Shown: positions 36,001-39,000 of the stretch, piece after piece | How positions within the stretch are numbered: position 1 is the first letter of the stretch | Layout: every line of letters starts with the position of its first letter | Source: an uncultured Campylobacter sp. | GTDB lineage: Bacteria; Campylobacterota; Campylobacteria; Campylobacterales; Campylobacteraceae | Reading direction: 5' to 3' | NCBI GenBank assembly: GCA_945928165.1 | Contig: CAMENE010000006.1 | Coordinates: forward strand, 5,384-69,383 | DNA length: 64,000 bases | Position numbers: made by a program

Positions 36001-39000
36001 TTAAAGGCAAGCTTTTGCGCCTTGATGCGCTGTTTTTGGGTGAAAATGAGGCTGTGATTTTGGACTTTAAAAGCTCGACACAAGCTGCTAAAAACAGCAG
36101 CGAGCAGATGAAGCTATACAAAAACGCAGTAGAAGCTATCTACAAAAAACCCGCAACAGCGTATTTTGTGACATTTAGGGGCGATGAGTGCTATTTAAAG
36201 GACTTGGAATTCTAGAATTCCTTAAAATTCGTCATCGCAAAAATCGCCGTCATCGCCAGGCTTTGAAAAAGAGGGAGCAATCTCTAGGAATTCCACACTT
36301 TATTAAACCTTATTTATTAAACATTGTTTATTAAGTCTTGGGCGAGATTGCTTCGGTCGCTTTGCCCCTCGCAATGACAAAATTACCTTAATGACGGAAT
36401 TCTAGATTTTATGGTAATTGTTTAAATTACTAAAAAAAGGAATTCTAGAATTAAGAATTCTAGAATTCCCTAGCTCTTTAAGCTAGATATTTTAGCTTAT
36501 GGTTTATTTTTATTTATTATTTAGCGGCGCGACTGTTGCTGCCCCCCCATTGCTACTACTGTTGTTGGTTGTTGGTTTTGTATAAACGCTTGTGCTTGAG
36601 CCGACAGCTATACCATTATTAGTACCATCTATTTTTGCCTGAAAATAATCGTTTATAGGTTGTGAAGCTAGAACTTGAGCGCAAACACCAGTTGGACTAT
36701 CCTTTTTACTGAAAACAATGTGAGCTGGTGTAGTGCCATTTTTATTTACCAACTGAACACCGATGCACTCTTCTTTACCACTACCAACTGTTAGGTATGC
36801 TACAGTTGTAGTCTCAGTTTCACTAGTGTTTAGAGGAGATACATTTGTGATATCTTTCCATTTAGCATCAGTACCGCCAGGACTAAATGTACCTTGTGCT
36901 ACATAGTAACCACTAGCGTCGCTTATTAGTGTGCGTAGGTTAGCAACAGCAGTTGAGATTTCAGCATCTTCTCTTGTAGCAGCTAGGCGAGGGATGGCGA
37001 CACTAGCTAGAATTCCTTAAAATTCGTCATTGCGAGCGAAGCGAAGCAATCTCATTATTAAGCCTTAAAATTCGTCATTGCTTCGTCTCACTCACTCCGC
37101 CCAGGTGACTGAACTTCCAAAATCACGGAATTACGAAATTTTAAAGGGAATTCTAGAATTCCCCCTTCGCTTTTTTATAGTTTTAGCATAATCCTATGCT
37201 ATCTTTTACTTTTCCGTTTTCGTCTAAATATAGTTTTTTAGTTTTTCATAGCGCGCTGGATTGCTTTTTGCGTTTTCTATCGTTTTCATAATTTGCGCAT
37301 CACGACTTAGTTTGCTGTCTTTGCTCTCTTTTAGCTTGTCTAGCTCGTCTTTGCCTTTTTGGCTAAGTTTTGCCCTTACTTCATTTGCGCTTTTTAGCAG
37401 CTTATCTCTCATCTCATAGCTAGCTTTTAACTCAGGGCTAAAACTCTCTCTCATTTCTAGCTCCCCACTCTCATTTGGGATAGAATTCTCAGCGGAGTTT
37501 AAAGGCAGAGTCTTGCCTTTTGTAAAGCCGTTAGAGTTGATAATCTTATTGGCTTCTCTAATATCATCATAAGCCGTAATTATCCACTTATTAGTCGTCG
37601 GCTCTCCTTTCCAGTTTTGCTTTAACCCAACCTTATAAATTTTGTTATTTTTGGTTTCATAAGTAATTGTTGCCCTGCCATTTTTATCTATTTTTATTTT
37701 TCCGTTACTAATTATCTCATTTAAGCCATTTATTAATTTTTCTTGCGGTGTATTTCCGTAAAAACCAGGTTCTTTTACACTCACTTAACTGCTTGAAATT
37801 CTAGAATTCCCAGCCAAATTCTAGAATTTCTAAGTAAAAAATACCCCTAACCCTGGGCCAGCGGATGCGAAGTAAAAAACTAATTCTAGAATTCCTAAAC
37901 AAATTCTAGAATTACCTAGAAAATTCCCAAGCTTTTATAAAGCTCTAAATACTCTTTTACCACAATGCTCTCATCGTATTTACTCTGCGCTATTTGCCTA
38001 GCCTTTTGTCCCATGCTAAGAGCTAAACTCTCATCATCTAAAAGCACCGAGATTTTAGCAGCTAAATCAGCCCCACTTCTTACTTCACACAAAAGCCCAG
38101 TTTGCCCAGCCCACACAGCCTCATTACAGCCCCTAGCCTTGCTTGCCACGCAAGGCTTAGCCATAGCCATAGCCTCTAAAATCGTGCGTGGAAAGCCCTC
38201 AGCATAGCTTGGCAGCGCATAAATATAGCTTGCGTTTAAAAGTGCCTTTATATTATCGCTCCACGGCAGGTAAAAGACATTTGCGTGTGAGCCCAAAAAC
38301 TCCGTGCTAAATCCAGCCTTGCCCTTTATGGGCGAGCCTACAAAGACAAAGGCGCAGTCCTTTCTAGCACTTAAAATATCAGCCGCTTCGTAAAACTCGC
38401 CCACGCCCTTATCTACAAGAGCCCTTGCTGCCATTAGCACGATTTTTTTGCCTTTTAGCGGCGCTAGTTCTGGCGCAGCTAGCTCATCATTAGGCGCAAA
38501 ATCAGCGCAGTTTATGCCCACGCTTTTAATAACCTTGATTTTATCCTTATCACAAAGCTTTTTTTCGCTAAAAAACTTCGCATCAGCCTCGCTTACAAAA
38601 ATACAAGCCTTTGCCTTATTTAGCGTGTTTTTATAAAGGTTTTCTAGCACAAAGCGCAAGATTTTATGCTTCCAGCTATCACCTGTGTAAGCAGACCCCA
38701 GCCCCTCAACAAGGCAAAAAATATTTTTTATACCTATCATACTAGCTGCCATCGTGCCAAAAATATTGCTTTTGTGCGCTGCGCTTTGGAGCATATCAAG
38801 GTGAAGTGGGGCTAGGGCTTTTGCTAGATTTAGAGCGTTTTTGCCCACGCGAAGTGGATTTATACTAGCAGCATCAATATCATAAAAAACGCACTCAAAC
38901 TCCGCCCCCACACGCTTTTCATAAGCGCCCTTTGGCATGAGGGCATAGACTTTGTGTCCAGTGCCCTTTAAAGCACGCATGATAGGCAATCTAAAATAAT

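Follow-up and report, generated by a model that had tools for sequence, protein, structure and literature searches.

The stretch analysed here (the window) comprises 64,000 nucleotides (nt) of an uncultured Campylobacter sp. (contig CAMENE010000006.1, positions 5,384–69,383, assembly GCA_945928165.1) and contains two members of a type IV pilin family in opposite orientation. A complete pilin gene on the plus strand (1709–2743) encodes 344 amino acids (aa) with an MKKG|F leader, a conserved alpha-1 helix, a variable globular domain and a tail. The second copy, on the minus strand at 36510–37016, is a 5′-truncated pilin cassette of 168 sense codons (GILASVAIPRL...APLNNK) closed by a TAA stop at 36510–36512. 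The original prediction on this DNA, made from the sequence alone, had described the minus-strand frame as a paralog of the gene at 1709–2743 that starts at about codon 18 without start codon, leader or promoter, and had proposed that the two copies form an expression/silent-cassette pair like pilE/pilS of Neisseria. The description was borne out, as the truncated frame is open over all its codons and aligns with the full protein from residue 18 onward in BLASTP (45% identity, E = 2e-37), and the nucleotide identity is 70.9% (1759–2233 versus 37017–36551). Judged from these alignments, the paralogy of the two copies is far beyond chance.

The complete pilin gene

The complete protein begins with MKKG|FSMTELIFVIVILGILA (MKKG|FSMTELIF), a prepilin N-methylation motif that matches PF07963 and TIGR02532. 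Its ATG is preceded at 8 nt by AAGGAG within a promoter and ribosome-binding site (RBS) region (1620–1708, plus strand), which resembles the upstream regions of array-first or single pilin genes in relatives and has no counterpart at the truncated copy. The AlphaFold2 model of the protein (predicted local distance difference test score of 84) shows a helix at residues 7–58 and a beta-sheet of four strands, and two cysteines are invariant in 42 family sequences. The N-terminal 50–65 residues match the sequences of the solved pilins PilA, PilE, MshA and geopilin, the match being limited to the alpha-1 helix, and a Foldseek search of the model against PDB returned no significant match and was uninformative. 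By its prepilin motif, and equally by its helix, beta-sheet and cysteine pair, the product is a type IV pilin. Its nearest relative is 78% identical. The tail ends in a conserved C-terminal module (PWV..SPATPGSPVATA..GYFSTA..GTGTGS), and because this module is also present in long-tailed members such as P0011, the tail of the 344-aa protein is taken as genuine. The tail itself is an unusual Ala/Pro/Lys-rich low-complexity extension of 180 aa (window 2210–2743); other family members carry different long tails or short Ser/Thr-rich tails, the latter being possible O-glycosylation sites.

The truncated cassette

The cassette starts at the equivalent of prepilin residue 18 and is thus devoid of the start codon, the leader, the RBS and the first 17 codons. 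An in-frame TAA directly precedes GILASVAIPRL, the truncated frame contains no ATG, and no sigma-70-like or promoter-like site was found on the minus strand between 37223 and 37017, upstream of the cassette. The remainder is well preserved: there are no stops or frameshifts across the 168 codons, all 26 columns that are invariant in 20 other family genes are retained (both conserved cysteines included), and no mismatch occurs at 19 near-invariant columns. Signs of pseudogene decay beyond the truncation, such as loss of conserved residues or the disabling mutations that the original prediction had named as the mark of a plain decaying copy, were not seen in these codons. The closest relative of the cassette is just 60–63% identical to it. 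The cassette is a leaderless and promoterless but otherwise intact pilin copy, and it keeps the 5′ and 3′ homology blocks that flank a variable core. The 5′ block, which codes for alpha-1-C, spans 1760–1871 on the plus strand of the complete gene and is shared with 37016–36905; the 3′ blocks lie at 2737–2845 (plus strand) and 36396–36503 (minus strand). The metagenome contigs L002 (100% over 2565 nt) and L003 (99.9%) carry the identical cassette junction, which is therefore not a one-off assembly artefact, and a further contig, L001, stops at 37063.

The truncation point and the dispersed palindromic repeat

The cassette opens on the motif GGAATTCTAGC (37006–37016, minus strand), whose codons are Gly-Ile-Leu-Ala and which is shared with the end of the repeat abutting it; in the window the motif occurs once per strand, at 1760 and at 37006–37016. 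The 51 nt upstream of the breakpoint (37017–37067, minus strand) are a copy (...GAGATTGCTTCGCTTCGCTCGCAATGACGAATTTTAAG) of a dispersed repeat ending ...GAGATTGCTTCGCTTCGCTCGCAATGACGAATTTTAAGGAATTCTAG that resembles repetitive extragenic palindromic (REP) elements, and this copy stands in place of the promoter, the RBS and codons 1–17. Together with the breakpoint motif (37067–37007) the repeat is 96.8% identical to 56653–56592, and partial copies occur at 36238–36212 and elsewhere. The 10-mer half-palindrome GGAATTCTAG is found at codons 18–21 of every family gene and also ends the dispersed REP-like repeat, so that, from this comparison of repeat and motif in the window, the cut lies within the 10–11 nt in which the REP-like element and pilin codons 18–21 are identical. 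An orphan pilin 5′ fragment was not found elsewhere in the window, and an Rfam scan gave only a sub-threshold chance match (greA leader, 26.8 bits where the gathering score is 60).

The earlier statement that the 5′ breakpoint falls exactly on a motif forming the core of an intergenic palindrome also held. The window has 163 GAATTC sites and 82 GGAATTCTAG half-palindromes, 74 of them within the intergenic 26% of the sequence, and GAATTC is about 10-fold enriched genome-wide; the host lineage is a GAATTC-palindrome-rich uncultured Campylobacter of rumen/gut type. A GAATTCTAGAATTC palindrome or REP-like system in Campylobacter is not described in the literature searched. Together with its half-sites, the 16-bp palindrome GGAATTCTAGAATTCC is strongly enriched and about 90% intergenic (for example at 2771–2802, 36437–36471 and 37146–37163), with rare coding copies in addB (32683) and addA (35424). 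Sites of the GGAATTCTAGAATTCC type are often long stems followed by T-runs, and the palindromes thus probably double as terminators.

Besides this palindrome there is a second dispersed repeat, GAGATTGCTTCGCTTCGCTCGCAATGAC(GAATTTTAGGGAATTC), which is hairpin-forming, translates as ..LLRFARNDEF... and clusters with the palindromes in intergenic DNA. Its sites include 37017–37067, 56592–56653 and 36212–36238 in the window, 780–1200 in the metagenome contig L004 and the upstream regions of the loci L092 and L093. It gives rise to spurious calls of open reading frames (ORFs), such as P0169, which was called through a TAG.

The pilin family and its gene arrays

The N-terminal domain of the complete gene finds more than 2700 protein clusters (at the 90% identity level), nearly all of them annotated as “type II secretion system protein” from metagenome-assembled genomes (MAGs) of Campylobacter sp. 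and typically 160–180 aa long. The first ~50 residues of these proteins are almost invariant and the remainder is highly variable. Tandem arrays of complete pilin genes were found in two related MAGs that match the window in GC content (39%) and GAATTC richness, with four genes in L084 (GCA_034119245.1, 9361–11721) and six in L085 (GCA_022777605.1, 8751–12388). In each array, a promoter-like region resembling that before 1709 sits before the first gene only. Every array gene is followed by AGCTAAAATATTTAGCTTAAAGAGCTAGGGAATTCTAGAATTCTTAATTCTAGAATTCC and a T-run, after which the internal genes go on with AAATTAACATAGAAAGGATAAAAG-ATG and the last gene has AGTAATTTAAACAATTACCATAAAATCTAGAATTCC instead; this exact extension follows both window copies and is also present in L004. 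A terminator-like palindrome and an RBS separate each array gene from the next. The downstream genes, although complete, may be silent or only weakly expressed. A general pattern run on Joint Genome Institute (JGI) metagenomes recovered six more single genes, all complete, whose 5′ region and proximal 3′ element agree with these.

The predicted duplication of about 105 bp downstream of the stops was confirmed, the 3′ flanks being 94.5% identical over 109 nt (2737–2844 versus 36503–36396). Both consist of a small hairpin and a 15–16-bp GGGAATTCTAGAATT... stem followed by a T-run and score as intrinsic terminators. In the complete gene the terminator-like stem is at 2769–2802, and in the cassette the element comprises the hairpin AAGCTAAAATATCTAGCTT, the stem GGGAATTCTAGAATTC...TTCTAGAATTCC with its T-run (36471–36437) and the AGTAATTTAAACAATTACCATAAAATCTAGAATTCC extension. 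The same terminator-like 3′ element (65–105 nt) is present in 20/20 family genes with a readable 3′ flank, GGAATTCTAGC stands at Gly-Ile-Leu-Ala in 21/21 compiled family genes, and GAATTC sites bracket the variable core in every gene. Over codons 18–57 (120 nt), 106 positions (88%) are identical between the window copies, with a longest exact run of 31 nt, and the cassette shares longer exact runs (48 and 45 nt) with pilins of the MAG L084. Since the identical blocks, the 3′ flank and the breakpoint motif are all family-wide, the two window copies are not singled out as a recombining pair, and these features lose the value that the original prediction had given them as evidence for a specific expression/silent pair.

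Gene conversion specific to the pair was rejected as evidence, since comparison with 19 other family genes gave the window copies no surplus of identity, whether over the 5′ block or in the length of exact runs. Homogenisation of the 5′ block at synonymous sites was likewise set aside: codon identity at conserved residues was 0.87 in the conserved part versus 0.86 in the variable part, and this equality makes the test uninformative. As a practical caution, conserved ends and flanks are universal in this pilin family, and the similarity of two copies within a genome is consequently not by itself evidence of exchange.

Truncated copies in other metagenomes, mosaicism and selection

The search for further partial copies, which had been suggested with the original prediction, was answered outside the window, where four were found in other metagenomes (L004, L092, L093 and P0213) with two types of junction. 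The type A junction of L004, which comes from another study and a different assembler, has the same REP-like repeat adjoining the truncated pilin, reads ...GACGAATTTTAGA|GAATTCTAGC with an in-frame TAG, and is thus REP::GAATTCTAGC as in the window. The 3′ flank of L004 is the same as that of the window cassette, array-terminal extension included, and the core is only 51% identical. Just 3 of the 82 window palindromes have the GACGAATTTTA flank, and this rarity would favour a shared junction, with later replacement of its core, over two independent truncations via the same repeat subfamily. The type B junction, REP palindrome-TAAGCG|TTGATCTTCGTGATCGT (REP-TAAGCG|TTGATCTTC), is shared by L092 and L093, which are from different samples; both are missing the promoter and about nine codons at the start, and their cores differ. 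L092 has an array-internal 3′ flank and L093 has the flank common to the complete gene L094. P0213 is a near-identical second instance of the product of L093.

The truncated cassette of L004 (SAMEA4688925) is identical at 533/534 nt to a complete, promoter- and leader-bearing gene, L095 (ERR2597411, PRJEB26961). The identity starts exactly at GAATTCTAGC and reaches the 3′ palindrome, and the upstream sequences are unrelated. L004 and L095 may stem from the same cohort or even the same sample. Triplet maximum chi-square tests were run on close relatives, in place of the pairwise homoplasy index (PHI) on all 21 genes, and L004 was found to follow L092 in the 5′ and central part and L093/L094 in the 3′ part (chi-square 35, 0/2000 permutations); L093 itself is mosaic (p = 0.001). 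The same junction with different cores, the 533/534-nt twin and the significant mosaics together indicate that truncated and complete copies exchange cores at the level of the family. Furthermore, the median pairwise ratio of non-synonymous to synonymous substitution rates (dN/dS) was ~1.6 for the variable region against 0.67 for the conserved block, values to which alignment uncertainty applies, and this indicates diversifying selection on the variable core.

Two broader scans had narrower yields. The scan of JGI metagenomes with a pattern for non-canonical junctions only found nothing, and the scan of GTDB species representatives with a leaderless pilin profile returned only distant relatives (~40%), from C. 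concisus and C. ureolyticus among other species. As no match of this second scan belongs to the GAATTC-rich clade, it is no census of truncated copies. In the literature searched, neither silent pilin cassettes nor pilin arrays are described in Campylobacter, in agreement with the claim of novelty made earlier.

Genes around the two copies

The window encodes gyrB, dnaN and dnaA (24066–28892, minus strand), ruvC, addB, addA and recA. The gyrB-dnaN-dnaA block, ruvC and addB-addA (within 24066–36215) lie between the two inverted pilin copies, recA (7742–8776) is 5 kb from the complete pilin gene, and the cumulative GC skew has its minimum near 26–30 kb. Pfam scans of 45 window ORFs detected no invertase, integrase or transposase, no recombinase near either pilin copy, and no prepilin peptidase or pilus machinery, and no restriction-modification enzyme gene was found in the window. 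A G-quadruplex (G4) motif was not found upstream of 1709. The sole canonical G4 motif of the window (3079–3107, GGGGTTTTAGGGGCGGCAGGGGTTTAGGG) is 335 nt downstream of the complete pilin gene, in a locally duplicated element of ~100 nt (second copy about 3310–3350), and does not occur next to the pilin genes of 14 related loci. To recover the expression locus from other samples, the full pilin, AddA, RNase H (rnhA) and RecA were looked up by exact match, with no record for any of them. Genes annotated for pilin biogenesis/glycosylation (pilO, mshL) have been reported in rumen Campylobacteraceae, and selection on such annotated genes has been reported in rumen-epithelial Campylobacteraceae, with no mention of pilin gene copies (PMC9894753).

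Origin and possible role of the cassette

From these comparisons we lean, with some reserve, towards the view that the element at 36510–37016 is a 5′-truncated cassette of a hypervariable pilin family, silent in both transcription and translation, created at a REP-like palindrome and able to recombine with expressed pilin genes, be it in programmed variation or in passive exchange. The truncation would have occurred by recombination between the half-palindrome inside the gene and a REP copy, and because the cassette has the flank of the last gene of an array, the simplest route would be a deletion that took out the promoter and any upstream array genes. With both homology arms retained, the variable core could then be exchanged with promoter-bearing pilin genes by general (RecA-type) homologous recombination, and the genome does have recA, addAB and ruvC. 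Non-reciprocal gene conversion, or a double crossover that uses both the 5′ and the 3′ block, would bring in another core and leave the DNA between the copies in its orientation. Alternatively, since the window copies have opposite orientations and flank dnaA, one exchange within the 5′ block would invert a segment of ~35 kb containing the presumed origin and would fuse the promoter and leader to the cassette; GGA ATT CTA GCT is in frame in both copies (the complete gene on the plus strand, the cassette on the minus strand), and the fusion would thus be in frame. Both the inversion and the gene-conversion routes are possibilities that we infer, and neither was observed.

Several results weigh against a recombining cassette. 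Only one truncated copy is present in the 64-kb window, and none was found among the 16 family genes of the unbiased loci L084–L091 (0/16). The original prediction had seen a mosaic of identical and divergent blocks in the window copies, and shared runs do exist, but the longest of them (31 nt) is family background (median 26, interquartile range 22–36); over their first 120 nt the window copies have 14 differences between them, as against 9–15 between the cassette and most pilins of other genomes. By these comparisons there is no pair-specific signal between the window copies. The three metagenome contigs over the cassette locus, none of which spans the expression locus, showed no variation and only the window arrangement, and no donor-to-recipient event inside one lineage was observed. 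The PHI test on all 21 divergent genes gave no significant result (p = 0.32); the probable reason is saturation, with almost every pair of sites incompatible. The L004/L095 twin is explained equally by a very recent truncation of a functional gene, and the recurrence of the junction could mean a recombination hotspot at the palindrome and not old, maintained loci.

Much of this would also be expected if the cassette were a plain relic, that is, a functional (or array-last) pilin gene recently decapitated by a deletion or rearrangement at the REP palindrome, with no role, intact because it is young, and with a junction that recurs because GGAATTCTAG is a hotspot. We regard this explanation as possible, though doubtful. 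The breakpoint lies exactly in a 10-mer that is frequent and largely intergenic in the window, the array-terminal flank of the cassette fits the collapse of an array, the twin fits a fresh truncation, and the absence of truncated copies in L084–L091, the lack of excess similarity to the expressed copy and the lack of a dedicated recombinase or G4 nearby point the same way. A young relic is harder to reconcile with a cassette whose nearest known relative is only 60–63% identical and which has yet gained no disabling change in 168 codons. Furthermore, the same REP subfamily stands at the window and L004 junctions despite its flank being so rare among the palindromes, which argues for a shared older junction with a replaced core; the type B junction is common to loci with different cores and 3′ contexts; and mosaics connect truncated and complete copies. 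An assembly artefact, in which repeat and pilin gene were joined as a chimera, is hardly conceivable. The junction does lie between two multi-copy sequences, where metagenome contigs often break (L001 at 37063, and six JGI pilin matches near contig ends), but the identity at the junction is only 11–14 nt, below assembler k-mers, and besides its identical occurrence in L002 and L003 an equivalent one was obtained in L004 from an independent study and assembler.

In the opposite direction, the cassette could belong to a dedicated, programmed system of high-frequency antigenic variation of the Neisseria pilE/pilS type, in which a specialised initiator (G4 with small RNA, or cleavage of a short palindrome) makes the expressed gene the preferential recipient. 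The architecture is parallel, with a conserved 5′ part, a variable core, a shared 3′ repeat and promoterless partial copies, dN/dS is above 1, and the GAATTC sites bracketing the core in every gene recall the CCGG sites whose cleavage by restriction-modification enzymes was recently shown for gonococcal pilin variation (PMC13321361). We nevertheless consider such a system decidedly unlikely, as there is no G4 upstream of the expressed gene and the sole G4 of the window is downstream, in a local repeat, and not conserved; the window yielded no gene for a recombinase or for restriction-modification; the genome-wide GAATTC enrichment is unlike what an active GAATTC-cutting enzyme would favour; and relatives mostly carry complete genes in tandem. 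A related and bolder proposal is that rumen/gut Campylobacter have genuine pilin antigenic variation initiated by breakage or cleavage at the GAATTC of GGAATTCTAG(AATTCC) palindromes, with cores moving among silent cassettes, array members and the promoter-proximal gene, possibly with origin-spanning inversions; we hold this to be unlikely, though worth stating.

Should the cassette and its relatives be true donors, an abundant host-associated group of Campylobacter could vary a surface fibre under diversifying selection by recombination, with cassette boundaries set by a genome-wide palindromic repeat. Consequences could be expected for colonisation, for the evasion of phages and of immunity, and for our understanding of how contingency loci are shaped by repeat elements.

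Comparison with known variation systems

Variation of type IV pilins from silent cassettes is textbook biology for Neisseria. The pilE-pilS system of N. gonorrhoeae and N. meningitidis acts by RecA-dependent gene conversion and has a G4/gar feature (PMC13321361). In common with it, the window has a type IV pilin with one promoter-bearing complete gene and a promoterless partial copy without the conserved N-terminal coding part, conserved blocks around a variable core with a cysteine pair, apparently mosaic alleles under diversifying selection, and a conserved repeat just downstream of all copies, which would be a functional analogue of Sma/Cla. In contrast, there is no sequence homology past the pilin alpha-1 helix, the window has a single partial copy where Neisseria has about 19 pilS copies, relatives of the window genome have tandem arrays of complete genes, and the truncation points are set by a genome-wide REP-like palindrome. 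The Neisseria-type G4/gar feature is not conserved here either, because the sole G4 motif is downstream, in a local repeat, and absent beside the pilin genes of relatives. Transfer in pilE/pilS is non-reciprocal and of high frequency; for the Campylobacter cassette such transfer would be hypothetical. The parallel drawn in the original prediction thus stands for the intact silent-type cassette with its 5′ and 3′ blocks and for core exchange at the family level, and falls short in the lack of a conserved G4, the complete tandem arrays of relatives and the single truncated copy in the window. By analogy, the window system would work most like pilE/pilS and other partial-copy reservoirs and, within the genus, like sap of Campylobacter fetus.

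The sap system (S-layer) of C. fetus, known from the work of the Blaser laboratory, depends on RecA-dependent inversion between oppositely oriented sapA homologs that have a conserved 5′ region and a single promoter. The likeness to the window includes the genus, the single promoter, cassettes with a common conserved 5′ block, general recombination genes, and inverted expressed and silent copies, so placed that a crossover within the 5′ block would bring another variant into expression. Unlike the pilins, sap encodes an S-layer protein from complete ORFs in one locus with about 600 bp of homology; in the window, the homologous stretch measures ~110 nt and the two copies are separated by 35 kb that include dnaA, and the three contigs, none of which spans the expression locus, gave no inverted isoform.

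Pilins are also switched by site-specific inversion, as in the Q/I pilins of Moraxella bovis and M. lacunata by the Piv invertase, and in the R64 shufflon by Rci for PilV tips. As in those systems, the recombination point in the window is inside the pilin coding region just past the conserved N-terminal part, and the promoterless 3′ segment is inverted. Piv and Rci, however, are dedicated recombinases encoded beside small (about 2 kb) invertible segments. No recombinase gene lies near either pilin copy, and GGAATTCTAG, the candidate site, is present 82 times in the 64 kb. Reservoirs of partial copies are further known in MgPa/MgPar of Mycoplasma genitalium, tprK of Treponema and babA/babB of Helicobacter. 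The vlsE/vls system of Borrelia is another such reservoir (PMC2632889). They resemble the window in having promoterless partial paralogs. In those systems, homologous recombination carries segments of the paralogs into a single expressed gene for a surface protein, as experiments have shown; neither the proteins nor the organisms are related to those considered here.

Additional observations near the cassette

The ORF immediately upstream of the cassette (37224–37784, minus strand) matches PBECR1 (phage-Barnase-EndoU-ColicinE5/D-RelE-like nuclease) and DUF3519, and appears to be without the N-terminal part of the PBECR1 profile. A tract of seven G residues lies at 36542, within the C-terminal tail of the truncated pilin. 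Homopolymeric G/C tracts of 7–10 nt are found at 11392, 23219, 23404, 36542, 45604 and 59828, and are candidates for phase variation of a kind known from Campylobacter.

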